Part shown: in pieces, positions 357-59,805 of the stretch
Position numbering within the stretch: position 1 is the stretch's first letter
Layout of the letters: each line of letters starts with the position of its first letter
From: Candidatus Iainarchaeum sp.
Lineage (GTDB): Archaea > B1Sed10-29 > WALL01
NCBI GenBank assembly: GCA_023129115.1
Contig: JAGMCR010000009.1
Coordinates: forward strand, 6,121-70,120
Length of the DNA: 64,000 bases
Direction of reading: 5' to 3'
Position numbers and translations under genes: made by a program
Notes under the pieces: generated by a model
The model's input: only the letters and a program-made list of their open reading frames with translations
Databases searched by the model: none
Told to the model about the DNA's origin: nothing

Positions 357-1163
357 GTTTAAATAGGTTATGCTGTTTACTGGTTATCCTTGCATGGCCT
401 TCTCTAATTCCATGGCGAGGTAATCAGTTAACGACCTTTCTTCGAAAATGCCTTTTTTGACAATTTTCTTGACTAGGTTAGGGACTGGTTCGCCAGTCAA
501 ATCAGACAGATAGATTATCGCTTCAGTAATGGCAGTTGGCGGAGTCTGAGCCAGTATGCCTGGCTTAAGCCCCTTATCGATTTCCTTCAAACGTTTGCAC
601 ATCTCAAGATACTCTTGCGGAGACCCATATGCGTTCTCATGTACATCTTCTTTGACCGAGGGGTGCAGGTTTTCTTCCCCCAAGACAAAATAAGCTAACG
701 CTTTACTGACTGATTCATGAAAAGTCTTGAACTTTGAGTAATGCGTGGAAGGATCATTGCCATCTTTGCCGACAAGATGCATGAGGACAACGTGGGACAA
801 TTCTTCCGGAATCGTGCGCCTAGCGAGTTCTACCTCGCCGAAAATGCCTGCACGTTGATTTGCCCCAAGATGATACTCGAACTTGCCGTTTACTTCGAGG
901 GGGAGGGCTACACCAGTAGTGAACTTAGAAACGAGGTTGGAACTATGACTAGCGATTTTGTCTTGCGATTCTTTTGATGCAGAGGGGTGGTTGGCAACGT
1001 AATCCTTTGCATCACCCACAGACTCATGGAATACTATCTTCTCAGGGAGTTCAAAATGAGTTGAGAGTATACTGTTCACCCTGTTTACCCTATCACGAGC
1101 CCACTCTGCCCTGACTTCAATAGGCATGAATCCGATTTATGCCTCTGAGAGTTTAAATAGGTT
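357..1163. mobile_element. Putative single-gene insertion cassette bounded by a 13-bp exact direct repeat
   Basis: GTTTAAATAGGTT occurs at 357-369 and again at 1151-1163. On the minus strand each copy is a TATA-like box: one in front of ftsZ, one about 24 nt in front of the ATG of ORF 384-1127. The enclosed gene is visibly AT-richer than its flanks (GC not computed). Confidence 0.45.
384..1127 (-). CDS. Hypothetical protein (247 aa), no domain recognised
   Basis: Intact ORF from the track with a TATA-like box about 24 nt upstream (1151-1163). It is AT-richer than its neighbours. No motif that I can name. Confidence 0.6.
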   Translation of the reverse strand: MPIEVRAEWARDRVNRVNSILSTHFELPEKIVFHESVGDAKDYVANHPSASKESQDKIASHSSNLVSKFTTGVALPLEVNGKFEYHLGANQRAGIFGEVELARRTIPEELSHVVLMHLVGKDGNDPSTHYSKFKTFHESVSKALAYFVLGEENLHPSVKEDVHENAYGSPQEYLEMCKRLKEIDKGLKPGILAQTPPTAITEAIIYLSDLTGEPVPNLVKKIVKKGIFEERSLTDYLAMELEKAMQG

Positions 1164-1233
1164 CTTGACTGACTGTTCCACTTGCCACGAGCGGGTTGTA
1201 TTGGCTCCAAGAGGATTCATAGAAGAACCTAAC

Positions 1234-1241
1234 CTTTAAAT
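1234..1241 (+). promoter_or_regulatory. TATA-like box for the ribose-1,5-bisphosphate isomerase / AMP phosphorylase pair
   Basis: CTTTAAAT lies about 27 nt upstream of ATG 1265, consistent with a leaderless archaeal promoter. Confidence 0.45.
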
Positions 1242-1264
1242 CCCAAGACTGCTTTTTAGCACCC

Positions 1265-2164
1265 ATGAAGTCGAAAACCACTGCCCAGCGCATAAAGCGG
1301 CTCGAAATCCAGGGCGCGAGGAATATTGCCCGCAAGGGGCTTGAGGCCCTGGCTTTTGACGCGCGCCGGAGCAAGGCGAAGACGCTGGCGGCGTTCGGGA
1401 AGGAAGTGGAGAAGAACAGCGCTCTGCTCGCCGGCGCGCGGCCCACCGAGCCAGCGCTGCGGAACGGCCTCGCGCTCGTGCAGAGCGCGCTCGCAATCGA
1501 GAGCTCTTTGCCCGGGGCAAAGGAGGCGGTCGCAGAGGCGACAACGCAGTACGCCAAGCAGATGGAAGAGGCCAAGAAAAAAATTGTGCAGGTGGGCGTG
1601 AAGCGGATAAGGAGTGGTATGACCGTGTTCACGCACTGCCATTCTTCCACGGTCACTGCGATACTGGTGGCGGCGTGGAAAAAAGGAAAACGGTTCGACG
1701 TGATTAACACGGAAACGCGCCCGCGCTTCCAGGGGAGGATTACTGCCCGCGAGCTTGTTGGCGCCGGGATTCCGGTGACGCACATCGTTGACTCCGCGGC
1801 GAGGAGGGTGATGAACGAGGCAGACCTTGTGCTGGTGGGTGCGGACGCCGTGACTGCAGAGGGCAGCCTCGTGAACAAGATTGGGACGAGCATGATTGCG
1901 CTGGCGGCGCACGAGGCGAGGACAGAGTTTGCCTCCGCGTGCGAGACGTTCAAGTTCGACCCGCTTACGCTGGGCGGCGAGGACGAGCCAATTGAGTACA
2001 GGAGCCCGAAAGAAGTGTGGGCGAGGCCGCCGCGCGGACTCAGTATAAGGAACCCTGCTTTTGATGTGACGCCGCCTGAATATATAGACTATATTATAAC
2101 AGAAGAGGGAATCATCCCGCCGTCAGAGGTAGCGCATATCCTGCGCGAAAGGGCGCGCTGGTGA
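1265..2164 (+). CDS. Ribose-1,5-bisphosphate isomerase (eIF-2B alpha/beta/delta family)
   Basis: Typical eIF-2B-family core: THCHSSTV, RPRFQGR, VGADAVTAEGSLVNKIGT. The specific call rests on the AMP phosphorylase gene immediately downstream. Confidence 0.75.
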   Translation: MKSKTTAQRIKRLEIQGARNIARKGLEALAFDARRSKAKTLAAFGKEVEKNSALLAGARPTEPALRNGLALVQSALAIESSLPGAKEAVAEATTQYAKQMEEAKKKIVQVGVKRIRSGMTVFTHCHSSTVTAILVAAWKKGKRFDVINTETRPRFQGRITARELVGAGIPVTHIVDSAARRVMNEADLVLVGADAVTAEGSLVNKIGTSMIALAAHEARTEFASACETFKFDPLTLGGEDEPIEYRSPKEVWARPPRGLSIRNPAFDVTPPEYIDYIITEEGIIPPSEVAHILRERARW

Positions 2165-2199
2165 ATCTTTATAAACAACGGCTCCGTTAGTGGGATTGG

Positions 2200-5826: not shown

Positions 5827-6945
5827 ATGGTGAAAAAGATTGCCGAGGGGAGCCACGCCGTGGCAGAAGTCGTGCGGCTTCTGAACCCGGACGTGCTGGC
5901 AATGTACCCAATCACTCCGTCGACACATATCCCTGAGCGGCTGAGCGACTTCGAGTCCGACGGGGAATTGGATGGCACGATAATCCGTGTCGACTCAGAG
6001 TTTTCGGCGATGTCCGCGCTCGTGGGCGCGAGCGCGACTGGCGTGAGGACGTACACGGCGACGAGCAGCCAAGGGCTGGCACTAATGCACGAGGTCTTGT
6101 TCGTCGCGTCCGCGATGAGGCTGCCGATTGTCATCACGGTCGTGAACCGCGCGCTTAGCGCGCCATTGAATATCTTTAACGACTGGCAGGACTCGATTAG
6201 CGAGCGCGACTCGGGATGGATACAGATGTACGGAGAGGACTCGCAGGAAGTCGCGGACCTGATGGTGCAGGCGTACCGCATCGCGGAAGACAAGAGGGTG
6301 CTGCTGCCGGTCATGGTGTGCATGGACGGCTTTTTCTTGAGCCATACCTACGACGTGATTGACGTGCCCGAGGACCTGAAGGGGTTCGTGCCTCCGTACA
6401 AGCCAGAGCACGCGTACCTGGACCCGAAGAGGCCGCAGACGCAGGGCGCGTGGGCCATGCAGGAGCCCTACTTCGAGCTGAGGAAAGAGCTGGAGGAGGC
6501 GGTGGGCGCGGCGCTGCCAGTGATAAAAGAGGTTCATGACGAGTTTGCGAAAGTGTTCGGCCGAAGTTATGGGGGCGGGGCCATTGATGTCTATGGCGAG
6601 GGCGACACTGTCGTTGTGTCCATGGGCAGCGTGTGCACCAACCTAAAGGTCCTTGCCGACAGGCTGGGCTTCCAGGTGGTGCGCGTGAGGTGCTACCGGC
6701 CGTTCCCGGCCGAAGACGTTAAGAAGGCGCTGGAGGGGAAGAAGGCGGTTGCGGTGTTCGAGAAGGACGTTGCGTACGGCACTGGCCACGGCGCGCTCTA
6801 CAACGACGTGCGGGCGTGCACGACGGGCAAGGCAGTGAACTTCATCGTCGGGCTCGGCGGGCTGGACGTCCCAATCAATGCACTGGAGAAGATGTGCGGG
6901 GAGATAGATGCCATGAATGACGGCGAGACGAGGTGGCAGAGATGA
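5827..6945 (+). CDS. porA: 2-oxoacid:ferredoxin oxidoreductase, alpha subunit
   Basis: 372 aa. The N-terminus EGSHAVAEVVRLLNPDVLAMYPITPST is typical of alpha subunits. The operon context supports the call. Confidence 0.85.
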   Translation: MVKKIAEGSHAVAEVVRLLNPDVLAMYPITPSTHIPERLSDFESDGELDGTIIRVDSEFSAMSALVGASATGVRTYTATSSQGLALMHEVLFVASAMRLPIVITVVNRALSAPLNIFNDWQDSISERDSGWIQMYGEDSQEVADLMVQAYRIAEDKRVLLPVMVCMDGFFLSHTYDVIDVPEDLKGFVPPYKPEHAYLDPKRPQTQGAWAMQEPYFELRKELEEAVGAALPVIKEVHDEFAKVFGRSYGGGAIDVYGEGDTVVVSMGSVCTNLKVLADRLGFQVVRVRCYRPFPAEDVKKALEGKKAVAVFEKDVAYGTGHGALYNDVRACTTGKAVNFIVGLGGLDVPINALEKMCGEIDAMNDGETRWQR

Positions 6946-6951
6946 CTATGA

Positions 6952-7010
6952 TGCCTCTGGGGGCATCTGTTGATGCCCCCAAGTCTACCGCGCCAGCTGA
7001 GGTTTCGGCT
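6952..7010 (+). repeat. G-run hairpin mini-element, copy a (inserted between porA and porB)
   Basis: Sequence is TGCCTCT-GGGGGCATC-tgtt-GATGCCCCC-AAGTCTACCGCGCCAGCTGAGGTTTCGGCT. It has a perfect 9-bp stem (6959-6967 / 6972-6980). It is bracketed by the 16-bp direct repeat GAGGTGGCAGAGATGA (6930-6945 and 7016-7031). Confidence 0.8.
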
Positions 7011-7027
7011 GAGATGAGGTGGCAGAG

Positions 7028-7915
7028 ATGAGTAGTGAAGTTATTTCGTCTGGGCACTCGGCTTGCGCCGGGTGCGGCGAAATCATTGGCGAGCGCATGG
7101 TGCTCGAGGCGCTGGGCAAGGACGTGATTGTTTGCCAGGCGACGGGGTGCATGGAAATCACTACAACGCCTTATCCGCGGACCGCGTTCAAGGTGCCGTG
7201 GCTGCACGTGACTTTCGAGAACGCGGCGTCTGCCGCCAGCGGGATTGTCGAGGCCGACAGGAAGCTCGGCCGCAATACCACTGTCGTGGCCATCGGCGGC
7301 GACGGCGGCATGATGGACATCGGGGTTCGCGCCTTGAGCGGGGTGATGGAGCGGGGCCACGACCTGATGCTGGTCGTGACCGATAACGAGGCGTACATGA
7401 ACACCGGGATACAGCGGTCGAGCGGCACGCCGAAGTACGCGGCGACTACGACTACTCCGGCGGGCAGCGTTGTGCCTGGGAAGAGGGAGTGGAAGAAGAG
7501 CATTTCGAGGATTGCGATTGCGCACGGGATTCCGTACGTCGCGACGGCAAGCATTGGGTTCCCCGAGGACCTGGTGGCCAAGGTAAAGAAGGCCCAGGGC
7601 ATCAAGGGCCCAAAGCTGCTGCACATTTACACGCCGTGCCCTGTGGGGTGGGGGTATGACTCGAGCAAGACGGTTTACTACGCCAAGAAGATTGTCGAGA
7701 CCGGGCTGTGGCCGCTTTACGAGATAGAGAACGGGAAGCTCACGATAAGCCAGAGGCCGACGTTCGCGCCGCTGGAAGAATATTTCACTGGCCAGAAGCG
7801 GTACAAGCACATCAAGCCCGAGCACATCAAGGAAGTCAGTGAGCGCGTCAAGGCTGGCTGGAAAGAACTGGAAAAGCAGGAGAAGGCCGGCGTCGACTTG
7901 ATGCTTCTTCCCTAG
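7028..7915 (+). CDS. porB: 2-oxoacid:ferredoxin oxidoreductase, beta subunit (TPP-binding)
   Basis: N-terminal SGHSACAGCG cluster and the TPP motif GGDGGMMDIG. ATG 7028 is preceded by GAGGTG. The track start at GTG 7019 lies inside the duplicated 16-mer. Confidence 0.85.
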   Translation: MSSEVISSGHSACAGCGEIIGERMVLEALGKDVIVCQATGCMEITTTPYPRTAFKVPWLHVTFENAASAASGIVEADRKLGRNTTVVAIGGDGGMMDIGVRALSGVMERGHDLMLVVTDNEAYMNTGIQRSSGTPKYAATTTTPAGSVVPGKREWKKSISRIAIAHGIPYVATASIGFPEDLVAKVKKAQGIKGPKLLHIYTPCPVGWGYDSSKTVYYAKKIVETGLWPLYEIENGKLTISQRPTFAPLEEYFTGQKRYKHIKPEHIKEVSERVKAGWKELEKQEKAGVDLMLLP

Positions 7916-10184: not shown

Positions 10185-10250
10185 TGCCTCTCTTAAGGGG
10201 GGCTACGCCAATTGGCGTAGCCCCCCAAGTTGTGGGGATTAACCCCCATA
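10185..10250 (+). repeat. G-run hairpin mini-element, copy e
   Basis: TGCCTCT-cttaa- followed by the perfect 30-nt palindrome GGGGGGCTACGCCAATTGGCGTAGCCCCCC (10197-10226), then AAGT. A small second hairpin TGGGG-attaac-CCCCA follows at 10233-10248. The 3' boundary is uncertain. Confidence 0.7.
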
Positions 10251-10305
10251 GTACGCGGCACAAAAGCACCTAGATTTTTATACTCATAGCTTGTATTCCA
10301 CCTCA

Positions 10306-41407: not shown

Positions 41408-41408
41408 G

Positions 41409-43753: not shown

Positions 43754-43851
43754 TGGGTGATTTATAGCTATTGTAGTATATAAATATTACTATTACAATA
43801 GTAAATAACCTTATATGGCTCGGCAGAGAAAGTTTTCCTGGGGAGAGTAGA

Positions 43852-44112: not shown

Positions 44113-44129
44113 AGGCGTTCTGGTCTTCT

Positions 44130-44798: not shown

Positions 44799-44851
44799 AA
44801 TGTTATATTTGTAACATTATGTATATATATGTAACTAAGCCCAATTATCGC

Positions 44852-45529: not shown

Positions 45530-45573
45530 GTCAGGTCACAGGAAAGATGATTTCGAGGCCTGCCTTGAAGCCG

Positions 45574-46116: not shown

Positions 46117-46148
46117 AGTAACCACGTTAGTAAAGGAACCTCGGAAAG

Positions 46149-47421
46149 TTATACAAGAAAGCTTTATAAAAGCATGAAGAGGTATTAAAGTATATGAAAA
46201 TTCACACCTTGGACGTGTTGCCCCGTCAGGTGAGAACAAAAGCTGGTAAAAAGCGGCTGCTCGTCTTGAAAGAAGGTTCCATCAGCTCCCTTCTGCCCAT
46301 AAAACTCAGGATATTGCGCCTACTCTCTAAGAAAGCCTTAAAAACAACCCAAGTCACGGAATTGCTAGGGATCCAGAAAAGGACGACCAGAAAATTTTTA
46401 AATGAGCTCGAGATTGAAGAAAAAATTGTGAGGACAGAAGGCAATCGCATTAACAACTCTTTTCGTTTCGCTGATTCATGGAGAATTGTTGGCAAGATAA
46501 GTGGCATCCCAAATAAACCCCCAAAAGACAGGGTATGTGTCTGGTACTCCACCAAGCACACTAATTACTCTACCCGTCATTACTGTTTTTTGCCGAAAGA
46601 GATAGGGCTAACAGACAACATCGCGTCTGCTATTGGCATATTTGATGGTGAGGGCAGCAAAACAAAAATTACTACGTTGGAGATTGTGAACAACGAGCCA
46701 CTGGTGATTAAATGCCTACTGGAGTTTTTTGGGATTTTTGGCATTCGGAAAAAAGACTGGAAGTGGAGATTAACATTCAATATTAAACTGAAGGACAAGT
46801 TGAGTGTAAAGGCTATTAAGAAGGCAAGAGAGTATTGGGTCAAGAGCACAAAGATATCCGCTGAAAACGAGACTGCTAGCTCCCCACAGTTTTTGGGTAC
46901 CCGCATAGGCAAAATCAGACGAGGCCCTCCGTGGGGGGCTTTGAGTATTTTTTACAATAGTGTGATACTGCGGAGCGTGCTAGCCTCAATTATGGAAAAC
47001 TTAAAACCAATGATACTACAGGATCCGCAGCTGGTCGCGGGGTATCTTAGGGGCTACCTCGCTGCAGAAGCATACGTTGGAGCAAACGACAGGGCGATAC
47101 AAACAGCCTCAACAAGAAAAGAAGAACTTGCTTATCTTGGAAAATGCTTTGATGTTATAGGGGTTAAAGCATCCATGAGTAAAGCAACAAGCACGTCGCC
47201 ACCACGCATTATTGTTACCAATTTTGATTCTTTCATGAAGCTATACAAGTTAGACGTGTTCAGGCTTCATCCATACAAAAAGGCTAACTTGCTTTCAAAA
47301 TTACTAAATTATACCCTATTAACTGGGGATGACAAAGAAAAAATTGGAAAAGAATTGAAGACACTAAACAACAAAATAGAAAACAGAGAAAAGCCTTTCA
47401 AAAAATTTACTTATACAAAAA
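46149..47421. mobile_element. Putative insertion of the LAGLIDADG gene, bounded by a short direct repeat that copies the gatD tail
   Basis: TTATACAAGAA (46149-46159) versus TTATACAAAAA (47411-47421), 10/11. The right copy is the gatD 3' end (reverse complement ...TTTTTGTATAAGTAA). The left copy (reverse complement TTTCTTGTATAAC) sits in the promoter region of the kinase gene. The repeat is short and AT-rich, so chance is not excluded. Confidence 0.35.
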
Positions 47422-47447
47422 CATATCTGGCTCGAGCTGGGGGTTGA
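46194..47447 (+). CDS. Free-standing LAGLIDADG homing-endonuclease-like protein with N-terminal wHTH
   Basis: Two LAGLIDADG-type motifs, IASAIGIFDGEGS and LVAGYLRGYLAAEAYVG, lie about 150 aa apart. An N-terminal wHTH (LRLLSKKALKTTQVTELLGIQKRTTRKFL) precedes them. This is the most AT-rich gene here. Its last 41 nt overlap the gatD 3' end. Confidence 0.65.
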   Translation: MKIHTLDVLPRQVRTKAGKKRLLVLKEGSISSLLPIKLRILRLLSKKALKTTQVTELLGIQKRTTRKFLNELEIEEKIVRTEGNRINNSFRFADSWRIVGKISGIPNKPPKDRVCVWYSTKHTNYSTRHYCFLPKEIGLTDNIASAIGIFDGEGSKTKITTLEIVNNEPLVIKCLLEFFGIFGIRKKDWKWRLTFNIKLKDKLSVKAIKKAREYWVKSTKISAENETASSPQFLGTRIGKIRRGPPWGALSIFYNSVILRSVLASIMENLKPMILQDPQLVAGYLRGYLAAEAYVGANDRAIQTASTRKEELAYLGKCFDVIGVKASMSKATSTSPPRIIVTNFDSFMKLYKLDVFRLHPYKKANLLSKLLNYTLLTGDDKEKIGKELKTLNNKIENREKPFKKFTYTKTYLARAGG

Positions 47448-48741: not shown

Positions 48742-49428
48742 TCAACCACTCGACGTTAGCTTTTCGCCCTTCTCGTTTTTAATGATAGGCACGGCCACGA
48801 CTTCCAGTGGCTGGAGCCCGAGCTCGATGCGCTTTTCATTGATTAGGTCGGCGCTGGGCCTCGTCTCGTCGCTGACCACGATGGTGCTGAACCGCGGCTC
48901 AAGCGCAAAGCCGTAGACGTCATCTATCTCGCAAATCACTGCGCCCCAGCCCATTTCCGAGAGGAACCGCTCGAGGCCTGCCTGCCTCTCCGCGAACGAA
49001 GGCACGTTGGAGTGCTTGGAAGACGCGAACTCGTCGCTCGTCAAGCCGATTTCCACTATCTTCCCAAGCGCGAACGCCATGCTGAACAAGTACTCGTGGC
49101 CCTTGTGGATAGCGCTGAAGGTCCCGCCAACACAGACCATGTCGCCCTTCTCTGCCGAAGCGTCCGGGAGGCGGATGTGCTCCAGGGAGCTGGAAGGAGT
49201 GGCAGCACTGGAGGAGCCGGCTTCTTCGCCACTGGGGGGGCTGGCAACTGCCAGCCCCCCGGTTTCAGCTTCTTCCTCCCCCGGTTGTGGCTCCTCTTCG
49301 ACGGTTTCTGGCTCTTCTTCAGTTTCTTGTTTTTCCTCCCCGGTTTCTTCTTCGGGCTCCAAAAGCAGGTCCTCGTCTTCTTCAATGTCCATTGCCGGGT
49401 CCAGCGGCGGGGGTGGGGGGCTGTTCAT
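48742..49428 (-). CDS. coaD: Phosphopantetheine adenylyltransferase (archaeal type) with a 96-aa acidic low-complexity N-terminal extension (or start at ATG 49140)
   Basis: The catalytic domain begins at MVCVGGTFSAIHKGHEYLF (nucleotidyltransferase H-x-G-H). Upstream is an in-frame P/E-rich region that contains a hairpin-element palindrome. Confidence 0.7.
   Translation of the reverse strand: MNSPPPPPLDPAMDIEEDEDLLLEPEEETGEEKQETEEEPETVEEEPQPGEEEAETGGLAVASPPSGEEAGSSSAATPSSSLEHIRLPDASAEKGDMVCVGGTFSAIHKGHEYLFSMAFALGKIVEIGLTSDEFASSKHSNVPSFAERQAGLERFLSEMGWGAVICEIDDVYGFALEPRFSTIVVSDETRPSADLINEKRIELGLQPLEVVAVPIIKNEKGEKLTSSG
49235..49270 (+). repeat. G-run hairpin element-like palindrome embedded in an ORF, copy f
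   Basis: GGGGGGCTGGCA-AC-TGCCAGCCCCCC (49235-49260) followed by GGTTTCAGCT (compare GGTTTCGGCT at the end of copy a). It reads in frame as ETGGLAVASPP on the minus strand. Confidence 0.55.
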
Positions 49429-50146: not shown

Positions 50147-51337
50147 ATGGCGCACTCGAAAGAGAGGTACCTCTTCCGCAAGAAGCTGAAGGAACTGTCC
50201 GAAATGAAGGGACAGGGGACAGAATTGATTAGTATCTACATTACGCCCGGCTACAACGTCAGCGAGGTCACGAACAAGCTCCGCGAAGAAGCTGGCCAGG
50301 CCATGAACATCAAGAGCAAGCAGACGCGGAAAAACGTGAGTGCCGCGATTGAGCGGCTCCTGCACGCGCTGAAGAACATGAAGAAGCCGCCCGAGAACGG
50401 GCTCGCGATTTTTTCGGGAAACATCGACGACAAGGTCGAGTTGTTCTCGATTGAGCCGCCCGAGCCACTGAATATCCAGACGTACAGGTGCGACTCACAG
50501 TTCTTTTTGGACCCGCTGTGGGACATGCTCGAGGCCAAGGAGGCGTACGGCCTGATTATTGTTGACAGGCGCGAGGCCACGCTCGCGCTGCTGAAGGGCA
50601 AGCGCATCGAGCTAATAAAGTCCATGGGGTCGCAGGTCCCCGGAAAGCACCGCGCCGGCGGGCAAAGCAGCGTGCGTTTTGAAAGGCTTATTGAAATCGC
50701 CGCGCACGAGTGGTTCAAGAAAGTCGGCGACCTGGCGAACAAGAACTTCGAGCCCGAAGAGGTCAAGGGCGTTATTTTGGGTGGGCCGGGCCCGACCAAG
50801 CACGGGTTCCTGAACGCGGACTACCTCAGCAACAAAACCAAGAAAAAAATTGTCGCCACTGTGGACACGAGCTACACCGACGAGTTCGGCATACGCGAGC
50901 TGATGCAGAAGTCTGGCGACGTGATGCACGACCTCGAGATAATCAAGGAAAAGAAGCTCCTCGAAAAGTTTTTGAGCGAGGCGGCGCTAGGCGGCCTGGC
51001 GGCGTACGGCGAGAAAGAGGTGCGCGAGGCGCTCACGATGGGCAAAGTGGACACACTGCTCTTGAGCGAGGAATTGATGTGGAAGCGCGTCGAGTTCAAG
51101 TGCCCCCAGTGCGGCGCAATCAAGGAGATGACGGTGAAGGAGCACATGCCACTCGTGAAGTGCGACAAGGACCACATGAACATGGCGCCGCACGTCGAGA
51201 AGGACTTCGTGGAAGAATTGGCCGAGCTCGCGGAGCAGATGGCCAGCAAAATCGAGATGATTTCGACGGACACGCCGGAAGGGGAACAATTTAAAGAGGG
51301 GTTTGGTGGGATAGGTGCGCTCCTGAGGTTTAAATAA
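50147..51337 (+). CDS. prf1: Peptide chain release factor aRF1
   Basis: NIKS motif (AMNIKSKQTR) and GGQ motif (HRAGGQSSVRFERL). Confidence 0.9.
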   Translation: MAHSKERYLFRKKLKELSEMKGQGTELISIYITPGYNVSEVTNKLREEAGQAMNIKSKQTRKNVSAAIERLLHALKNMKKPPENGLAIFSGNIDDKVELFSIEPPEPLNIQTYRCDSQFFLDPLWDMLEAKEAYGLIIVDRREATLALLKGKRIELIKSMGSQVPGKHRAGGQSSVRFERLIEIAAHEWFKKVGDLANKNFEPEEVKGVILGGPGPTKHGFLNADYLSNKTKKKIVATVDTSYTDEFGIRELMQKSGDVMHDLEIIKEKKLLEKFLSEAALGGLAAYGEKEVREALTMGKVDTLLLSEELMWKRVEFKCPQCGAIKEMTVKEHMPLVKCDKDHMNMAPHVEKDFVEELAELAEQMASKIEMISTDTPEGEQFKEGFGGIGALLRFK

Positions 51338-51382
51338 TATATAAGGAAAAGCTTATATATGTAAGTAATTCCTAATACCTGC

Positions 51383-51946
51383 ATGCGGCTCGACAGAGTT
51401 TTAAACGAACTGCTTGGTTCTCAAGCCAAAGTAAGGATTACAAGGGTGGTTGTCACTAACCCCCGGCTGGAGCACACCGGGAGGGAACTTGCCCTGATTG
51501 CGGAAATATCTCAACCACAAGCCAAGGAAGCGCTGGGGGTGTTGGAGACTTATGGGGTGGTTGGGAGCAGGACCGTGGGGCGGGCAATCGTGTGGAGACT
51601 AAATAAAAAAAACTATATTTACAAAGAATTGCTGCTGCCTTTGTTCACGAATGAAAAAATGGTGCTAAGGGATTTGAAAAAAGAACTTGCCCGGACTCTC
51701 GAGCCATTCTCGGAAAAAGTCATTTTATTTGGGAGCATTGCCCGGGAGGGGGGCGGGTCGTCAAGTGACTTGGACTTGTGTGTTGTCACAAAGAACAAGA
51801 AACTAGCCAAAAAAGCACTCTTGGATTTGGGGGCAGAAATTGCCAGAAAGTATAATATAGTTGTTTCGTCAGTAATTTATTCGCCGAAAGAATACAAAAC
51901 ATCAAAAATAATCGAGGGGGGAGAGGCAATATGCGAACGAGGATAG
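51383..51946 (+). CDS. Nucleotidyltransferase (MNT-type) with N-terminal wHTH
   Basis: NTase motif LFGSIAREGGGSSSDLDLCVV (G-S-x-x-R...D-x-D). An N-terminal wHTH-like region precedes it. Confidence 0.7.
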   Translation: MRLDRVLNELLGSQAKVRITRVVVTNPRLEHTGRELALIAEISQPQAKEALGVLETYGVVGSRTVGRAIVWRLNKKNYIYKELLLPLFTNEKMVLRDLKKELARTLEPFSEKVILFGSIAREGGGSSSDLDLCVVTKNKKLAKKALLDLGAEIARKYNIVVSSVIYSPKEYKTSKIIEGGEAICERG

Positions 51947-52329
51947 TGGAAAAATTCAAGTACAATAATTTTCTTCAAAAGGCTAGAGAGTTTTATGACG
52001 AGATGAATGAGGCCCATGCAGCAAAGCGCTGGAATGCTGTTGGATTAAACGGTATTCACTGTGCAATCAGCTGCTGCGACGCGGTGACAGTTTACTTTCT
52101 CGGCAAACGAAGTGCTGGAGAGCGACACGAAGAAGTGGTCAAACTGCTACAGCAAATAAAGGACGTCGATGAAAAAGTAATAAAGCAGAGGATTGTGCAG
52201 ATTCTTGATGTGCTGAGGTCCAAAACACGAGTGGAGTACCACGCAGAAGTATTTTCTGAGAAAGAAGCTGGCATGATAGTCAAGCAAACAAAACGGGTTT
52301 ATGAATGGACAACTGGGCTACTTAAATGA
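51931..52329 (+). CDS. HEPN-domain protein (partner of the MNT gene)
   Basis: 132-aa helical protein that overlaps the MNT gene by 16 nt. It has R-x-x-x-H (RVEYH) near the position of the HEPN R-x(4-6)-H motif. The pairing is typical of HEPN/MNT modules. Confidence 0.6.
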   Translation: MRTRIVEKFKYNNFLQKAREFYDEMNEAHAAKRWNAVGLNGIHCAISCCDAVTVYFLGKRSAGERHEEVVKLLQQIKDVDEKVIKQRIVQILDVLRSKTRVEYHAEVFSEKEAGMIVKQTKRVYEWTTGLLK

Positions 52330-53399
52330 TAATCAAGCAGTCGCCGCAAGATTTTGTTGTCGAAGAAATAACTCTTGACGGGGAAGTGCTGGAGGTCGGG
52401 AAAGAATATTCTTTTTCTGGTGGGGAGGGAGAGCACCTTGTTTTTGTGCTGGAGAAGACAAACTGGGCGACTATGGGCGCGATGAAGGAATTGGGAAAGC
52501 GCTTGCATTGCTCGGAAAAGCGCTTGGGGTTCGCGGGCACCAAGGACCGGCGCGCCGTGACAACGCAGAGGTGCTCTGCGTGGAACGTGAAGAAGGAAGA
52601 GCTTGACAAAGTAAATATAAAAGACATAACGCTGAAGCCGCTCTGCTATGGCGAGCGCGTGGGGCTCGGCGACCTGTGGGGGAACAGGTTCACGATAACA
52701 GTGCGGGAGTTCGACGGCGAGGGAAAAATGCCGGAGAAAATCCCGAATTTTTTCGGGCCGCAGCGGTTTGGGGGGCAGAGGCCGATAACCCACCTCGTCG
52801 GCAAGGCGATTGTGAACGGCCAGTTCCACGACGCCGCCGACATATACCTTTTTGAGACGATGGAGGGCGACCCGGAGAGGGAAGTGCGGGAGAAATGCAG
52901 GGGCGACTACGCCCGCGCCCTCAAGGAATTCCCGATGCACCTTAAGTACGAGCGGTCGATGCTTGGCTGGCTCGCGAAGAGCCCGGGCGACTGGGTGGGT
53001 GCGCTGCGGGCATTGCCGCGGAAATTGCTGGTGATGTTCGTTCATGCTTACCAGTCGCACTTGTTCAACCGCGTGCTCGAGGAGCGGGGCATTGAGCCGA
53101 GGAAAGGGGACGTCCTTGAGGAGGGAGTGCCCACGGGCCCGCTGTTTGGCATGGAGTGCCCGCTCGCCGCCGGGGAGGCGGGCGAGATTGAGCGCCGCGT
53201 GCTTGAGGGCGAGTGGCTGGGGCTGAGGGACTTCGAAATCCACGGCATGCCTGACCTGACGAGCAAGGGCATGAGGCGGAGGCTCTGGATTGAGCCGAAG
53301 GGCTTCGAGGTGTTGGAGGGGGGCGGGAGCTGGATAAAAGTAAGGTTTTCGCTGCCGAAGGGGTGCTACGCGACTACTGCGTTAGATTACCTGAAGTAG
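52326..53399 (+). CDS. truD: tRNA pseudouridine synthase TruD/Pus7 family
   Basis: FAGTKDRRAVTTQ catalytic-Asp motif, and NFFGPQRFG. Confidence 0.85.
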   Translation: MIIKQSPQDFVVEEITLDGEVLEVGKEYSFSGGEGEHLVFVLEKTNWATMGAMKELGKRLHCSEKRLGFAGTKDRRAVTTQRCSAWNVKKEELDKVNIKDITLKPLCYGERVGLGDLWGNRFTITVREFDGEGKMPEKIPNFFGPQRFGGQRPITHLVGKAIVNGQFHDAADIYLFETMEGDPEREVREKCRGDYARALKEFPMHLKYERSMLGWLAKSPGDWVGALRALPRKLLVMFVHAYQSHLFNRVLEERGIEPRKGDVLEEGVPTGPLFGMECPLAAGEAGEIERRVLEGEWLGLRDFEIHGMPDLTSKGMRRRLWIEPKGFEVLEGGGSWIKVRFSLPKGCYATTALDYLK

Positions 53400-53400
53400 A

Positions 53401-53500
53401 TGCCTCTGGGGGGCGTCAACTGCCACCGGCTTAGGGGGGCGCCGACTGGCGCCCCCCTAGTCCATTGCGATGGCTTGGTAGTCTAACGCGAAGTTATCCT
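53401..53500 (+). repeat. G-run hairpin mini-element, copy b (composite/nested)
   Basis: It starts 1 nt after the truD stop with TGCCTCT-GGGGGGCGTCAACTG, whose 15 nt GGGGGGCGTCAACTG match copy c. A complete hairpin TAGGGGGGCGCC-gact-GGCGCCCCCCTA follows at 53432-53459, then TAGTCCATTGCGATGGCTTGGTAGTCTAACGCG. It is bracketed by GTTAGATTACCT at 53381-53392 and 53506-53517. Confidence 0.7.
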
Positions 53501-54353
53501 AAGCTGTTAGATTACCTTCAGTAAGGTTTCCCGGCTCGGCAGGAATGGCCAAGAAGTACGGCAGGCCTTCCCTCAGGAGCCCTATTGTCGCGTTGACCGC
53601 TTTTTGCGAGTCGCCGGGGGCGGGCTGTATGTCTATGGTCGAGTTGCCCACGTGCACCTGTGTCGTGGGGTAGGACGGGTAGCGCAGGATTATGGACGGC
53701 TCCTCGAGGGCCTGGCGGCACTTTTCGACCGGGACTTGCGCGTTTGAGCTGTTGGTGCACGAGAGCCAGTCGCCGTCCGCCTGCACGCCGTAGACGCTCA
53801 CGTTCACCCCCTCTGACGCGAGGTGGAAGACGAGCGGCACGAACGCGTCGACTGCTCCCTGGGGGTCTTCGCCGGGCTTTACCTCGAAAAAGAAGTTCAC
53901 TTCGGGGGAGTAGCCCAGCAATGCCGCCTTGAGCAGGGGGTTCCAGTGGTACGAGTAAAAGATTATGCCTGCCTGCTTGTCGCCGGCGGCGTTGTAGTCT
54001 ACGTAGAGGCCTTCCGAGTTGTGCAGGAGCTTGTGGCCGTTCTCGTCAGTGGCGTAGACGCTTATTTGCTTAAGGCCGACGTCGTCGTACGGCGAGACGA
54101 AGTAGCTGAAGAAGTAGCTGTTGCCCTCCTGCCTGTCAAGGGTGGCCTCGCGGTCCGGGAGGAGAACTGATATCTGGTTGAGCGGAATGCTGGAGTCCAC
54201 GCGTATCGTGGCGTAGCCTATGGCTGCGGGCTGGGGATGGGCGGAGACATTGAGCTCGGCGCGCTCGCTGTGGGACGTGCCGAAGTACGAAGTGATGCCT
54301 ATTGAAATGACGACTATAAGGGCGAGGAATATCCATTGCTTTTGTGCTTTCAT
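53499..54353 (-). CDS. Secreted protein with signal anchor, several N-x-S/T sequons, function unknown
   Basis: N-terminal MKAQKQWIFLALIVVISIGITSYF. It is downstream of, and possibly co-regulated with, the large surface protein gene. Confidence 0.55.
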   Translation of the reverse strand: MKAQKQWIFLALIVVISIGITSYFGTSHSERAELNVSAHPQPAAIGYATIRVDSSIPLNQISVLLPDREATLDRQEGNSYFFSYFVSPYDDVGLKQISVYATDENGHKLLHNSEGLYVDYNAAGDKQAGIIFYSYHWNPLLKAALLGYSPEVNFFFEVKPGEDPQGAVDAFVPLVFHLASEGVNVSVYGVQADGDWLSCTNSSNAQVPVEKCRQALEEPSIILRYPSYPTTQVHVGNSTIDIQPAPGDSQKAVNATIGLLREGLPYFLAIPAEPGNLTEGNLTA

Positions 54354-57752: not shown

Positions 57753-58049
57753 ATGGTCAATCCCGCCAACTTCACGGCGCTGCCCATTGCATTTAACGAG
57801 CCGAGCGGGCTCATAGTGCTCGCCGTGGGCGCAGTCGTCGTCGTTGCCGCGTTCTACATATTCTTCCGCATAATCAAGGACGTCATCGCAAACGCCATAA
57901 TCGGCGGAATCGGCTTGATAGTGCTGCACTTCGCCGGCCCACACATCGGCGTCAGCGTGCCCATCGACTTGATAAACATCGTAATCGCCATCCTCGGCGG
58001 ATTGCCGGGACTGGCCATAATAGTCGTTTTCTCGGCTCTTGGGCTATAG
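57753..58049 (+). CDS. Small membrane protein, BofA-like (tentative)
   Basis: 98 aa with 3 hydrophobic helices. The pattern IANAIIGGIGLIVLHF...INIVIAILGGLPGLAIIV recalls the BofA family. I start at ATG 57753. Confidence 0.4.
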   Translation: MVNPANFTALPIAFNEPSGLIVLAVGAVVVVAAFYIFFRIIKDVIANAIIGGIGLIVLHFAGPHIGVSVPIDLINIVIAILGGLPGLAIIVVFSALGL

Positions 58050-58110
58050 CCTAGCTCAGTAGACTAGGGGGGCGTCAACTGACGCCCCCCCTAGGCTGGT
58101 TTGAATTAAG
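58050..58110 (-). repeat. G-run hairpin mini-element, copy c
   Basis: Plus strand: CCTAGCTCAGTAGACTA-GGGGGGCGTC-aact-GACGCCCCCC-CTAGGCTGGTTTGAATTAAG, with the stem at 58067-58076 / 58081-58090. Its two ends abut the TAG of the BofA-like gene and the TAA of the duplicated radical SAM tail. Confidence 0.75.
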
Positions 58111-58198
58111 TTATTTGAATACTCCAGCAATCTTCGCGCTGCACGACGGGCACTTCCCCTTGTCCACGTGGCTTTCCAGCAGCGCGAAGCCGTGCCGC
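58111..58198 (-). pseudogene. Displaced duplicate of the last 29 codons of the radical SAM gene
   Basis: The minus strand reads RHGFALLESHVDKGKCPSCSAKIAGVFK-stop, versus RHGFALLESHVDKGKCHSCGQKIAGVFK-stop in the real gene. 58149-58198 is identical to 58294-58343 (50/50). The last 39 nt differ at 14 positions. Confidence 0.8.
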
Positions 58199-58254
58199 AG
58201 CCCAAACCTGAGCTGGCGAGGTAGACTTGGGGGGCACAAAGCCCCCCAGAGGCA
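58199..58254 (-). repeat. G-run hairpin mini-element, copy d
   Basis: The reverse complement is TGCCTCT-GGGGGGC-tttgt-GCCCCCC-AAGTCTACCTCGCCAGCTCAGGTTTGGGCT. It starts 1 nt after the radical SAM TAA. Its flanks are nearly identical to copy a. Confidence 0.8.
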
Positions 58255-58255
58255 G

Positions 58256-59302
58256 TTACTTAAAAACGCCGGCAATCTTCTGCCCGCAGCTGTGGCACTT
58301 CCCCTTGTCCACGTGGCTTTCCAGCAGCGCGAAGCCGTGCCGCTTTATCAATGCCTCGCCGCAGTTGGGGCAGTGCGTGTTCTCGAACGGGTCGCCGGGA
58401 TAAGTGTTGCCGCAGTACACGTACTTCACGCCGCTCTCGAGCGCGATTTCCCTTGCCTTTACGAGCGTCTCGCGCGGGGTGGGGTTGGTGTTCCGCATCT
58501 TGTACGCGGGAAAGAACGCGGAGAAGTGGAGGGGCATGTTTGGGTCGAGGTCGTGCACGAACTCCGAGATTTGTAGTATGGACGCGTTGTCGTCGTTCTG
58601 GCCGGGGATGATGAGGTTGGTCACCTCGACCCAGGTCTTGTTCCGCTTCATTCTTTTTATTGAGTCGAGGACGTGCTGCATCTCGACGCCGCCGCACACT
58701 TTTTTGTAGAACTCTTCGTTGCCCTTTACGTCGACGTTGGCGGCGTCCAATTCCTTGTAGTCCTTGAGCATTTCTTTGGTCATGTAGCCGTTCGTGACGA
58801 AGACGTTCTTGATTTTTTGTTTGTGCGCGAGCACGCTGGTGTCCTTGGCGTACTCGTAGAAAATCGTTGGCTCCGTATAAGTGTAGCTGATGCTTGGTGT
58901 TTTGTACTCGCCCGCCAATCGCACGACTTCACTTGGCGGGACCTCGCGCTGCGGCCCGGCCTCCCACGCGGCCTGGCTGATTTCCCAGTTCTGGCAGTGC
59001 TGGCAATGCAGGTTGCATCCCACAGTCGCGATGCTGAGGGTTTCGGTGCCCGGCAAAAAATGAAACAGCGGCTTTTTTTCGATGGGGTCCGTGTTGACCG
59101 AGCATGGCTTGGCGTACGTCATTGCGTACAGGGTGCCGCGGATGTTCTCGCGCACCTGGCAGTTGCCCCTGCCGCCCTCGGGGATTTTGCACCGCCGGTT
59201 GCACAGGCTGCACTGGACGGCCTTGTCCTTGAGCTTTTTGTATAGGTACGCTTCTTTCACGCGAGAGACAAAGCGCCCCGCCGATATAAAGGTTTTGTGC
59301 AA
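58256..59302 (-). CDS. AmmeMemoRadiSam-system-type radical SAM enzyme (PflA-like activase family)
   Basis: CNLHCQHCQNW radical SAM cluster, an N-terminal CSLCNRRCKI cluster and a C-terminal CPNCG...CHSCG zinc ribbon. Confidence 0.75.
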   Translation of the reverse strand: MHKTFISAGRFVSRVKEAYLYKKLKDKAVQCSLCNRRCKIPEGGRGNCQVRENIRGTLYAMTYAKPCSVNTDPIEKKPLFHFLPGTETLSIATVGCNLHCQHCQNWEISQAAWEAGPQREVPPSEVVRLAGEYKTPSISYTYTEPTIFYEYAKDTSVLAHKQKIKNVFVTNGYMTKEMLKDYKELDAANVDVKGNEEFYKKVCGGVEMQHVLDSIKRMKRNKTWVEVTNLIIPGQNDDNASILQISEFVHDLDPNMPLHFSAFFPAYKMRNTNPTPRETLVKAREIALESGVKYVYCGNTYPGDPFENTHCPNCGEALIKRHGFALLESHVDKGKCHSCGQKIAGVFK

Positions 59303-59386
59303 AAATAATGCAAGGGTTTTATATAGTGGGAAAGCCGCAATAGTAGCTACGTGATAGCGATGAAAGGCGATTCACTTCACAAGGGC

Positions 59387-59555
59387 ATGGAAAGTTAGGC
59401 TGGACAAGAAGTTCAGGCTAGTTCTGCCTTTGGAAGCGAGGGAGTCGCTTGGAATCACGGACGAGGTTCTTGTTGTTTTTGACGGCAAAGCGGTAGCCAT
59501 AACCAATTCGAAGGGCGAGAGCGGGAGAGCTATTTCAAAGAATGTTGTTGAGTGC
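59387..59555 (+). pseudogene. SpoVT/AbrB (MazE-like) domain relic, start out of frame by one nt and no stop before the tRNA
   Basis: The frame from 59391 reads KVRLDKKFRLVLPLEARESLGITDEVLVVFDGKAVAITNSKGE. ATG 59387-59389 is separated from that frame by a single extra nt (G 59390). An in-frame TGA lies at 59361-59363. The frame runs through tRNA-His to 59654. Confidence 0.45.
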
Positions 59556-59628
59556 GGCTCGGGTAGTGTAACGGCTGGCACAGTAGGTTGTGGTCCTGCT
59601 AGAGCGGGTTCGACTCCCGCCCCGAGCC
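59556..59628 (+). tRNA. tRNA-His (anticodon GTG) with genome-encoded G-1
   Basis: Hand-folded structure:
- G-1
- acceptor GCTCGGG / CCCGAGC
- D stem GTGT / GCAC
- anticodon stem GTAGG / CCTGC with loop TTGTGGT
- 4-nt variable loop
- T arm GCGGG-TTCGACT-CCCGC
- discriminator C pairing with G-1
No encoded CCA. Confidence 0.85.
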
Positions 59629-59805
59629 CTAAACGAGGTGGTGAAGATGATTAAGGGTGTTTCACTTCACCAAAGCCTACTTTCTGGAGACGCAAGGCTC
59701 GGCAGCCCTCATAGCTGAAGCAGTCATTCTCAGGAATGGCATTGTTTGCAATGTAGAGATTATTGTTAATGGTTCAATGCGGGGCAAAGCAGAGGTGAGT
59801 TTTTC

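Follow-up and report, generated by a model that had tools for sequence, protein, structure and literature searches.

Lineage-specific insertions at gene junctions of a DPANN archaeon are bracketed by duplicated junction sequences

In DPANN archaea and other organisms with reduced genomes, non-coding DNA is almost absent and genes often overlap, and the way in which such organisms acquire genes is poorly understood. Here we describe a 64-kb stretch of the genome of Candidatus Iainarchaeum sp. (assembly GCA_023129115.1, contig JAGMCR010000009.1, positions 6,121 to 70,120), called the window below and numbered from its first letter, in which inserted DNA lies between genes with the sequence of the gene junction duplicated around it. 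Some of the insertions are copies of a small structured element, termed E, and others are gene cassettes or larger blocks. The gene content is that of archaeal housekeeping and includes ftsZ, eRF1, gatD and gatE, exosome, proteasome and RNase P genes, POR, and a his operon. Among named sequences, the best matches of the TruD protein come from Ca. Diapherotrites and other DPANN (58% and below). The 77 called genes are tightly packed: 95.7% of the window is coding, the median intergenic gap is 8.5 nucleotides (nt), and 31 of the 76 gene junctions overlap or abut. Neighboring genes usually have a common boundary, which can be an ATGA, CTAG or GTGA stop/start overlap, a tail-to-tail overlap of 9–26 nt, or a TATA box directly after a stop codon. 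Sixteen gaps exceed 60 nt, and 11 of these are insertion junctions.

An original prediction, made from the letters of the window, had proposed ten insertions that are bracketed by repeats of a host gene end, gene start or TATA region; they are numbered cases 1 to 10 here. All ten repeat pairs are present where they had been placed. The observation was confirmed in part, as most of the insertions are bracketed in the proposed manner and case 3 and the repeat pair of case 5 are not, and the interpretation that accompanied it was partly supported.

The window corresponds, in reverse orientation, to part of a metagenome scaffold in ENA (ZHAN22-2_SAMN18200505 scaffold_7, 268,886 bp). The closest relative compared is the single-cell genome (SAG) AM-311-L14, whose contig JBHOSQ010000004.1 is collinear with the window at about 77% nucleotide identity (range 69–85%). 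Four metagenome lineages were compared as well; the metagenome contigs cited are numbered L091 to L098, among which L097 is more distant than the SAG (its TruD is 75% identical). A catalogue of window–SAG indels of at least 60 nt contains ten entries. Nine are segments found only in the window: 373–1233 (case 1), 6930–7015 (case 2), 38078–39135 (case 4), 39879–41402 (the genes pdxS and pdxT, absent from the original list), 43185–45581 (containing case 5), 46137–47419 (case 6), 51338–52343 (case 7), a unit of ~133–145 nt at case 9, and a segment from 59262 to about 66581 that holds tRNA-His and the whole his operon and contains case 10. The tenth is an insert of 2,070 bp found only in the SAG (contig positions 36789–38858, L087), at the equivalent of window 3716|3717. 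Duplicated junction sequence accompanies eight or nine of these ten indels, the SAG-only insert included, and the bracketing thus extends beyond the cases first listed.

Relatives show the empty state at most sites. The SAG has single-copy empty sites for cases 1, 2, 6, 7 and 9; case 8 is empty in L096 and L098, and case 9 also in L098. In L097 the genes run GTPase–THUMP–gatE–AAA_18–gatD, every junction abuts or overlaps, and the DNA of case 4, pdxST, case 5 and case 6 is missing. The boundary sequence that is single in an empty site stands on both sides of the insert at nearly every filled site. With the boundary duplicated, each neighbor keeps a complete stop codon, start codon, Shine–Dalgarno (SD) sequence or TATA box. 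The insertions are real and lineage-specific, they lie at gene junctions, and the junction signal that the neighbors formerly shared is duplicated around them. Over all sites the duplications measure 4, about 10, 13, 18, 24, about 19–31, 36, 37 and 90 nt. None falls short of the signal that the neighbors share in an empty site, and the surplus over that signal varies. The range of 4 to 90 nt agrees with the earlier remark that the repeats are unlike those left by the fixed stagger of a transposase.

The inserts differ from their surroundings in composition. Their GC content is 0.41–0.49 versus 0.57 for the whole window, as expected of the AT-richer cassettes that had been described, and they are the lowest-GC 1-kb windows if pdxST and the his operon are excluded. 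Because the window-only segments have no counterpart in the SAG (nor, for case 4, pdxST, case 5 and case 6, in L097) and, save for these two, the lowest GC content, they are best read as gains in the window lineage. The SAG-only insert shows that the pattern is found in the relative too. It has a GC content of 0.48, encodes a 677-aa protein with a CNLSCGHC radical-SAM motif, and lies between convergent genes for AMP phosphorylase and an amidohydrolase, whose 4-nt CTAG stop overlap is present at both insert ends.

At several junctions the inserted DNA is an E element. In the SAG the genes for the POR alpha and beta subunits are joined by one copy of the boundary with an ATGA stop/start overlap (..GGTGGCAGAGATGAGCAGTG..). 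In the window (case 2) a 62-nt element with two hairpins and a fold z-score of −4.0 (6949–7010, plus strand), missing from the SAG and also carried by L091 at this junction, lies between two copies of this boundary that are identical at 22 of 24 nt. The left copy (6925–6948, plus) provides the last codons and stop of POR alpha (ETRWQR-stop), and the right copy (7011–7034, plus) provides an SD-like GAGGTGG and the ATG of POR beta (7028). Counted by eye, the copies match the SAG orthologue at only 20 of 24 nt each, less than they match one another. The 3′ half of E is identical in the window and L091, whereas the flanking genes are only 78% identical.

Case 9 has the longest duplication. On the minus strand, the order is gene end, E, second gene end and a diverged E member, called E′. 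The functional end of an AmmeMemoRadiSam radical SAM gene (58254–58343; ..CHSCGQKIAGVFK-stop) is followed by E (58199–58253), which is absent in the SAG and L098, and then by a relic copy (58109–58198) of the last 29 codons and stop of the same gene, with the tail CPSCSAKIAGVFK-stop. Over 90 nt the copies agree at 76 positions; the first 50 nt are identical and the remaining 40 nt are 65% identical. The relic tail resembles CPECGAKIAG.. alleles of other lineages. Both the SAG and L098 have a single gene end, which in L098 overlaps the stop of bofA by 4 nt. E′ (58037–58100, minus) is orthologous to a SAG hairpin whose stem has another sequence and is still fully paired through compensatory changes.

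In case 8 the element separates convergent genes. L096 and L098 have no element here, and TruD and its convergent neighbor overlap tail to tail by 26 nt and 9 nt, respectively. An orthologous element parts the genes in the window, the SAG and L095, each of which carries the overlap region in duplicate. In the window, the left copy (53381–53399, plus) is the TruD end (LDYLK-stop). The right copy (53506–53524) matches it at 16 of 19 nt, is homologous to the L096 overlap region and codes on the minus strand for the C-terminus of the convergent 284-aa gene (53499–54353, minus). The E element between them (53400–53505, plus) has a second hairpin unit nested in hairpin 1. Both copies are functional, and case 8 therefore is not a gene-plus-relic arrangement. 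Two JGI metagenome contigs, L092 and L093, have the same layout of gene end, E, and gene end, with E after the stop codon and with the duplicated ends VIWPAFANLL-stop/VIWPAFANIL-stop and IKSLL-stop/IKSLL-stop. Case 3, by comparison, does not stand as a bracketed insertion. Its E-like element with two hairpins (10185–10256, plus) separates a 443-aa gene from a divergent SpoU-type methylase gene and has an orthologue at the corresponding SAG site, which leaves no empty site; only its second hairpin (10232–10253) is specific to the window, and its repeat is not above chance.

Eight copies of E, from the window, the SAG and five metagenome contigs, were aligned. The family is ~60 nt long, strand-specific and built of two hairpins. 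It begins with a conserved 5′-TGCCTCTG, continues with a hairpin 1 that is variable in sequence and always paired, and ends with a conserved CAAGTCTACCNCGCCAGCTSAGGTTTSGGCTG-3′, of which the last 19 nt form hairpin 2. Compensatory changes are found at six of the eight pairs of hairpin 1, and hairpin 2 has an invariant U·G pair and three compensatory changes at one pair. These characteristics point to a structure that would be read on one strand, as RNA or single-stranded DNA. The covariance model R1 recovers four members in the window, at 6949–7014 (plus, 80.8 bits), 53398–53509 (plus, with the nested unit, 22.6 bits over the full model length), 58195–58257 (minus, 81.5 bits) and 58037–58100 (minus, 23.5 bits), and none in 1.05 Mb of unrelated genomes. 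A scan of GTDB genomes returned the known SAG copy only, and a scan of viral contigs returned none. Rfam at its gathering threshold detects tRNA-His alone in the window and no family matching E. Permissive Rfam matches on E regions, to a C/D snoRNA-like family (20.7 bits versus a cutoff of 64) and a frameshift-element hairpin, were rejected as sub-threshold chance, and a C/D-box reading of the case 2 element fails for the other copies.

Several other hairpins in and near the window were observed. G6..C6 hairpins occupy orthologous intergenic sites at window 58067–58091 and SAG 86015–86040, and at window 10197–10226 and SAG 45252–45281; the stem sequences differ and yet stay paired, which suggests that the structure itself is maintained. 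Upstream of the window, near −6070, −6020 and −1490 in window numbering, are G-run hairpins and an E-like fragment (CGCCAGCTCAG), and a gene whose giant product (3,135 residues) lacks a Pfam match is located about 6 kb upstream of the window start (L085 1–1650). A perfect G-run hairpin (GGGGGGCTGGCAACTGCCAGCCCCCC) at 49235–49260 is inside the coding region of a CTP_transf_like gene (48742–49428, minus). It falls in an acidic, low-complexity N-terminal extension, which the SAG gene has in shorter form and the L097 gene (132 aa) lacks. This hairpin resembles palindromic elements inserted in-frame in genes. Separately, a 12-nt tandem repeat at 27863–27925 (CTTGGCTTTCTT, Lys/Ala-rich coding sequence, minus) is 33 nt longer than in the SAG.

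The second group of inserts consists of cassettes that carry genes. In case 1, a TATA/BRE-like 13-mer (GTTTAAATAGGTT, 357–369) upstream of ftsZ (start at 295, minus) is repeated without mismatch (13/13) at 1151–1163, 24 nt upstream of the ATG of the cassette gene on the minus strand. The insert (370–1150, minus) holds a gene for a 247-aa ORFan protein (384–1127) with very few relatives, has a GC content of 0.46 and is absent in the SAG. The left copy ends 3 nt before the junction that the SAG defines (372|373), and the same 13-mer is present once in the SAG. The right junction is less clean, with about 70 nt up to the e2B2 TATA that cannot be aligned to the 16-nt SAG spacer.

The repeat of case 4 comprises a TATA box and the last seven codons of the THUMP gene. 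All parts lie on the minus strand. The left copy (38058–38094) provides the TATA (GGAATAAAAG) of the GTPase gene and a decayed THUMP end (QSLIGTY, no stop), and the right copy (39126–39162) provides the functional THUMP end (QPLLGI-stop) and the TATA of the cassette gene. The insert between them (38095–39125; GC 0.48) encodes an ORFan protein of 328 aa (38123–39109) and is absent in the SAG and L097. At this junction the SAG has an E-like element with no duplication, and the genes abut in L097. Neither the case 1 nor the case 4 protein has a Pfam, NCBIfam or PADLOC match, and the latter has only six relatives among 1.84 billion representative proteins.

Case 6 involves the end of gatD. The insert (46140–47406, plus; GC 0.41; absent in the SAG and L097) carries a gene for a 417-aa protein with HTH and LAGLIDADG_3 domains (46194–47447), the last 41 nt of which overlap the gatD end. 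The second assignment, which a tentative reading as a LAGLIDADG homing endonuclease would need, is a weak match (PF14528, 24.6 bits versus a cutoff of 22.5, residues 281–346 only); the protein has one distant homologue only, with the same Pfam domain, and no sequence match in PDB. The ancestral gatD end is left as a relic at 46127–46139 (minus; reverse complement GTTCCTTTACTAA, FLY-stop), exactly where the SAG alignment breaks. The functional end at 47407–47421 (minus) reads ATG TTT TTG TAT AAG TAA, in which each FLY codon differs from that of the relic; gatD ends in EPDMFLY-stop in the SAG and L097. Within the insert, close to its edge (46149–46159), the gene end is present a third time, and it is this copy that had been paired as the repeat.

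In case 7 the eRF1/TruD boundary, which in the SAG is a single TTCAAATGAGG with an ATGA overlap, is present as TTTAAATAA on the left and CTTAAATGATA on the right of a 1-kb cassette. The left copy (51328–51340, plus) is the eRF1 end and stop (..TTTAAATAA TA) and the right copy (52320–52332, plus; CTTAAATGATAA) contains the TruD start codon (52326). The insert (51341–52319, plus; GC 0.44) holds a gene for an HTH-nucleotidyltransferase, MNT (51383–51946), and a HEPN gene (51931–52329) that overlaps it by 16 nt. Matches to PF18765 and PF01909 (34.6 and 33.6 bits), PF05168 (24.7 bits) and PADLOC PDC-M05A (1.5e-16) identify this cargo as a type VII (MNT-HEPN) toxin–antitoxin or defence-like pair, with the adjacent genes typical of such a pair; an NCBIfam MntA match is below its cutoff. 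The same junction holds E-like elements of 78 and 104 nt with about 10-nt duplications in L095 and L098, and in L097 an 86-nt remnant whose left end is common to the window cassette. These elements indicate that the eRF1|TruD junction is a recurrent or ancient insertion site, and the emptiness of the SAG there may be a precise secondary loss.

The region around gatE appears to record the replacement of an essential gene. The gatE gene (41409–43214, minus; GC 0.52) has a diverged N-terminus (MDYEKMGFRSGLELH). Its product is 74.7% identical to that of the SAG, compared with 78–89% for nine other genes, the nucleotide identity is 68.8%, and the gene is about equidistant from those of the SAG and L097. 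It is followed by a low-GC segment of 2.3 kb (43215–45545) with four genes (160 aa, 86 aa, DUF7523 and B3_4) that is absent in the SAG and L097. Beyond this segment, 2.3 kb from the gatE of the window, is a relic of the ancestral gatE 5′ end (45546–45581, minus; VTDGFKAGLEII), which abuts and overlaps the stop of the AAA_18 gene as gatE does in empty sites. The relic is identical to the SAG gatE start at 31 of 36 nt and to the start of the window's own gatE at 13 of 30; L097 has VKDTGFKAGLEIH. The resident gatE thus appears to have been replaced by a xenologous allele that arrived in a block with the four low-GC genes. The true bracket of this insertion is the 5′ relic, and the case 5 repeat pair within the segment (43267–43288 and 44125–44148) proved to be at chance level. 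The PLP synthase genes pdxS and pdxT (39879–41408, plus; GC 0.59), found only in the window, lie between the THUMP gene and gatE, which overlap by ATGA in the SAG and L097, and are perhaps part of the same incoming block.

Case 10 concerns a conserved leader, about 85 nt long, found ahead of hisS in three lineages (SAG about 87130–87205; L098 about 7555–7658; the scaffold of the window, about 66550–66590). It has the form ATG..CAAGGCGATTTACTTCAY..TGATTTYTCTAG..ATAAAAAC..AGTAGTG..ATG, and its frame 0 is a mini open reading frame (ORF), M(K)QGDLLH[RC]-stop, with a single His codon just before the stop. This arrangement makes it a candidate histidine-responsive leader in an archaeon. In the window, the 5′ part of the leader heads tRNA-His and the his operon, and the 3′ part remains before hisS. 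Two copies of the 5′ part on the plus strand (59360–59405 and 59647–59690) flank an insert (59406–59646, plus) that holds an AbrB-like pseudogene fragment and tRNA-His (59557–59629); the GC content of 59303–59805 is 0.49. Downstream of the right copy come a 50-aa ORF and then the his operon (hisD at 59806, HAD-aminotransferase fusion, hisB, hisH, hisA, hisF, hisIE and hisG), which with tRNA-His sits between the radical SAM gene and hisS. The operon has a host-like GC content (0.55), and neither the SAG, with a 128-nt spacer at this locus, nor L098, with 356 nt, contains it there. An AbrB/SpoVT-like frame (59364–59556; ..KVRLDKKFRLVLPLEARESLGITDEVLVVFDG..) with no in-frame start runs into tRNA-His and is probably the remnant of an antitoxin-like gene beside the tRNA.

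One might ask whether the repeats arise by chance, from coincidental or recurring TATA and stop/start motifs, with the empty sites being deletions in the SAG and L097. Exact direct repeats at most 1.5 kb apart were counted in the window and in 30 dinucleotide shuffles. The real and shuffled counts are 150 versus 74 for 10-mers, 60 versus 19 for 11-mers, 23 versus 5.3 for 12-mers, 3 versus 1.3 for 13-mers, and 5 versus 0.03 for repeats of at least 16 nt. A permutation test of local alignments between 120-nt windows was also run; it is uninformative for spacings below 120 nt (cases 2 and 3, whose windows overlap) and for case 1, whose right copy lies outside. The repeats of cases 2, 4, 8, 9 and 10 are far above chance, with lengths and identities of 24 nt (22/24) in case 2, 37 nt (29/37; p about 0.003) in case 4, 19 nt (16/19; p about 0.012) in case 8 and 90 nt (76/90) in case 9, and p about 0.017 in case 10. 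The repeats of cases 1 (13/13), 6 (10/11) and 7 (9/10) alone are not significant, and the pairs of cases 6 and 7 and the gapped pairs of cases 3 and 5 fall at the null mean (the compared windows of case 3 overlap). As repeats, cases 3, 5, 6 and 7 do not rise above chance.

These counts give the chance explanation some footing, as repeats of 10–13 nt occur at about the chance rate, TTTAAATAGG is found three times in the window, and the eRF1|TruD junction suggests a loss in the SAG. Even so, the repeats sit at junctions that synteny sets independently, the inserts are the lowest-GC DNA of the window, and those of cases 4, 5 and 6 are absent in two lineages of different depth. The relics of gatE and of the gatD end are explicable only as derived states. 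Chance is therefore a very unlikely explanation overall and is largely refuted for cases 2, 4, 5 (as the large block), 8, 9 and 10. Cases 1, 6 and 7 are at chance level as repeats, and the anatomy of their junctions, as read from the alignments, supports them.

We also considered whether strain variants of a gene end might have been joined in tandem during metagenome assembly. The source is a metagenome scaffold and the relic copies are allele-like, as such an artefact would require. However, contigs L083, L084 and L086, which come from other samples and another assembler, are 100% identical to the window across cases 1–4, so that these structures are not a product of assembly. A single-cell genome shows the same architecture, as do unrelated contigs from JGI and ENA, and the junction k-mers (gene end | E) must be present in the reads. 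We regard this explanation as hardly credible.

Many of the duplicate copies look like alleles of one another. With case 6 left out, 27 of the 50 differences between copies fall at third codon positions, and 23 changed codons are synonymous versus 14 that are not. Between the L093 copies 7 of 18 nt differ, and each change is synonymous; the L092 copies differ by five synonymous changes and one conservative change. The synonymous bias claimed for case 4 is not borne out, as four of its five changed codons are non-synonymous. The original proposal took one copy of each pair as redundant. Several cases differ in that both copies serve a gene: in case 2 (a stop; an SD and ATG), case 7 (a stop; a start) and case 8 (two C-termini), and as TATA boxes in cases 1 and 4.

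One explanation for the allele-like relics is that recombination was the primary generator of the brackets. DNA of a diverged relative, already carrying the insert beside the same gene, would enter an empty site either as a linear fragment with one homologous anchor or as a small circle of insert plus gene end that had looped out between repeats. A crossover in the gene together with an illegitimate join, as in homology-facilitated illegitimate recombination (HFIR), or a Campbell-type single crossover would then leave the donor and recipient ends flanking the insert. A role for DNA bearing an allelic gene end had been suggested originally, and the data support it directly: gatE is xenologous with its ancestral 5′ end left as a relic, the functional gatD end of case 6 is recoded at every codon beside a relic that equals the allele of the SAG and L097, the tail of the case 9 relic is allele-like, and the duplicates show a synonymous excess. 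The case 9 pattern, 50 identical nt followed by two allele-like tails, is what a crossover inside the repeat is expected to produce, and the almost wholly synonymous differences in L093 and L092, as well as the identity of the E 3′ half between the window and L091, fit as well.

There is precedent for this route, since HFIR leaves retained "orphaned" 3′ gene regions at loci for type VI secretion (T6SS), Rhs and contact-dependent inhibition (CDI) systems (PMC5361080). There, as here, an incoming part of a homologous gene displaces the resident end, and the relics are intact-looking alleles. The products of HFIR, a foreign allele flank, a non-homologous join and a relic, are found at the gatE block and at the gatD end of case 6. 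In contrast to the orphaned gene strings, the relics of the window are 12–90 nt long, lie at housekeeping junctions and have no toxin/immunity link, and the bracket also takes the form of near-identical in-situ duplicates (case 2). Recombination as the generator also needs a donor that already had an insert between the same overlapping genes, which leaves the first event at each locus unexplained. The two case 2 copies are closer to one another than to the orthologue, which fits duplication in situ; the 3′ boundary of E is constant at unrelated loci, which is unexpected for illegitimate joins; and HFIR is rare where it has been measured (PMC5361080). We therefore treat recombination as a possible generator of the brackets and an unlikely one on balance.

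The geometry of E raises a different possibility. In all seven independent sites at which E or an E-like element is flanked by a duplication, the 5′ end lies 0–3 nt past a stop codon, the element is co-oriented with the upstream gene, and the excess duplication is wholly 3′ of the element. Duplication lengths in the family are 0, about 10, 18, 24, about 19–31, 36 and 90 nt. Immediately ahead of the left copy, where the duplication starts, the host sequence matches the 3′ end of E (GGGCTG), with GGGCTG at the TruD site, CGGC at the POR site and 6 of 9 nt in L092. The 5′ flanks (GTAG, GTAA, GTGA, ATGA, GTTT, GAG and AGC) show no fixed motif, GTRA being present in some copies only. E or E-like copies in spacer DNA (L094, SAG 73066 and window 10185) have neither a duplication nor an adjoining stop codon. 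An order of events with duplication first and insertion later is disfavored, as E is always exactly between the copies and never inside a relic. Two readings of the repeats as coding devices were also rejected. For a translational bypass like that of T4 gene 60, the take-off and landing codons differ (for example, TTG and CTC in L093) and the protein is already terminated in the left copy; for in-frame reading through E, the copies would have to be spaced by a multiple of 3, and their spacings are 86, 125 and 145 nt.

These regularities could reflect a dedicated mechanism, in which E is mobilized in trans by an enzyme that makes long target duplications of variable length behind stop codons. 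Candidates would be an IS1634-type DDE transposase, or a target-primed reverse-transcription process of the kind used by short interspersed elements (SINEs), or a replication-primed process, and the cassettes would then land in dispensable DNA created by E. The conserved ends, two hairpins and strand-specific U·G pairing of E argue for this, as do its fixed orientation and stop-adjacent 5′ end, the microhomology of its 3′ end, and the E-like elements that relatives hold at the cassette junctions of case 4 (SAG) and case 7 (L095 and L098). On the other side, E has no terminal inverted repeats, and no integrase, transposase, reverse transcriptase or Y1 gene is annotated among the genes of ~77 kb that extend from 7.8 kb before the window to 5.3 kb after it. 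The spacer copies lack a duplication, the SAG-only cassette has a duplication of merely 4 nt, and the relic of the gatE block is on the other side; the last two facts indicate that the phenomenon is not restricted to E. Such an enzyme is doubtful on this evidence.

Comparison with known systems yields no complete counterpart. Like the REP-RAYT, MITE and IS200/IS605 PATE elements, E is small, multicopy and non-coding, conserves structure over sequence, is strand-specific and is placed at gene 3′ ends or between convergent genes. Its two hairpins with compensatory changes and the invariant U·G (T·G in DNA) on the sense strand also agree with the one-strand recognition of subterminal hairpins seen in IS200/IS605 and REP elements. 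Those elements, however, insert at a fixed motif with no duplication at all, whereas duplications flank E at seven sites and measure 10–90 nt at gene ends. Unlike MITE and REP elements, E has no terminal inverted repeats, as its ends (TGCCTCTG.. and ..GGGCTG) are not complementary, and no fixed short target duplication, and the region examined contains no Y1/RAYT gene. No inverted repeats are seen at the cassette ends by eye, no dedicated search for them having been run.

IS1634, an IS4-related element, comes closer in one respect, since its target duplications run from tens to about a hundred nt and vary from copy to copy; the title of the work on it, as cited in PMC2266710 and PMC1798306, states that it creates long direct repeats of variable length. 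IS1634 is, however, an autonomous DDE element with inverted repeats, no such element is present in the region examined, and in the window cassettes and larger blocks with no element ends show the same bracket. The variable target duplications, 3′-end microhomology and sense-strand structure of E might be compared with those of non-long-terminal-repeat (non-LTR) retroelements and SINEs, except that no reverse transcriptase is annotated nearby, there is no A-tail and one end of E abuts stop codons.

Integrative elements that carry att sites likewise leave direct repeats of a gene end, one functional and one redundant, with a length that depends on the element. Here there is no integrase in the region, and the repeats around E at one locus are unrelated to those at another, which means that E does not bring the repeat along as an att site. 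E ends also lack a match to the core site of integron attC cassettes (RYYYAAC .. GTTRRRY), and the inserts are scattered singly. Finally, the variable and template repeats (VR/TR) of diversity-generating retroelements (DGRs) resemble the present arrangement, with a gene 3′ end repeated just downstream and a GC-rich hairpin after the first copy. This reading was rejected, as mismatches between the copies of case 9, L092 and L093 involve all four bases in both directions and are not adenine-specific, and no reverse transcriptase is annotated.

The best explanation for the whole pattern, to which we assign a probability of roughly 0.6, is that a junction duplication of variable length arises at insertion, that selection for intact neighbors retains it, and that exchange with relatives follows. 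The insertion event itself would make the duplication with no fixed stagger, for example by fill-in of variably staggered breaks; microhomology-guided template switching or priming is an alternative way in which it could be made. In DNA that is ~96% coding, only events whose duplication spans the shared signal would survive. A selection filter in a genome of overlapping gene ends was among the explanations first offered, and the ATGA, CTAG and GTGA overlaps and the 9- and 26-nt tail overlaps of the empty sites are in line with it. Later homologous exchange with related lineages could overwrite either copy up to the heterology, by conversion tracts or by crossovers within the repeat, which would be why many relics look like intact, synonymously recoded alleles. 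For gatE and the gatD end, the insert may have come with a foreign allele of the neighboring gene through one-sided homology-facilitated recombination. Direct repeats would also allow precise loss, restoring the overlap.

Several observations weigh against this explanation. The step that makes the duplication is one that we infer, and no candidate enzyme is annotated in the region examined. pdxST, which has no junction duplication, is the one clear exception to the pattern. Selection alone leaves both the 3′-sided excess and the stop-adjacent 5′ end of E (7/7 sites) unexplained; the asymmetry of E and its 3′-end microhomology are a better fit to a primed, microhomology-guided mechanism than to pure selection. 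Cases 1, 6 and 7 rest on repeats of 10–13 nt that are individually non-significant. At eRF1|TruD, distant lineages carry an E-like element and the close SAG is empty, so that the empty state could be a secondary loss at some sites, and the duplication of case 7 could be the mark of an earlier E-like insertion and not of the cassette. The structure of case 9, with 50 identical nt beside 40 nt at 65%, needs an additional conversion or crossover.

A bolder proposal is that E represents an undescribed class of archaeal mobile element that inserts behind a co-oriented stop codon by a primed, RNA- or replication-based process, in which microhomology would guide the re-copying of 10–90 nt of the gene end. 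By parting neighbors that had overlapped, E would create the sole dispensable DNA in these DPANN genomes, and that DNA would serve as a landing pad for foreign cassettes. We offer this tentatively and think it improbable.

What is new here is a clade-specific family of structured mini-elements and an unusually clear insertion signature shaped by selection. A duplicated junction is a readable scar that can serve to find and date insertions, to distinguish them from losses, and to reveal the xenologous replacement of essential genes such as gatE. The geometry of E, adjacent to stop codons and with long variable duplications, is matched by no transposition chemistry that we compared, and there is a minority chance that the integration mechanism is genuinely new. 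A mechanism specific to the element would amount to a new mode of integration; a generic one would make the window a clean natural example of how selection shapes the products of illegitimate recombination.

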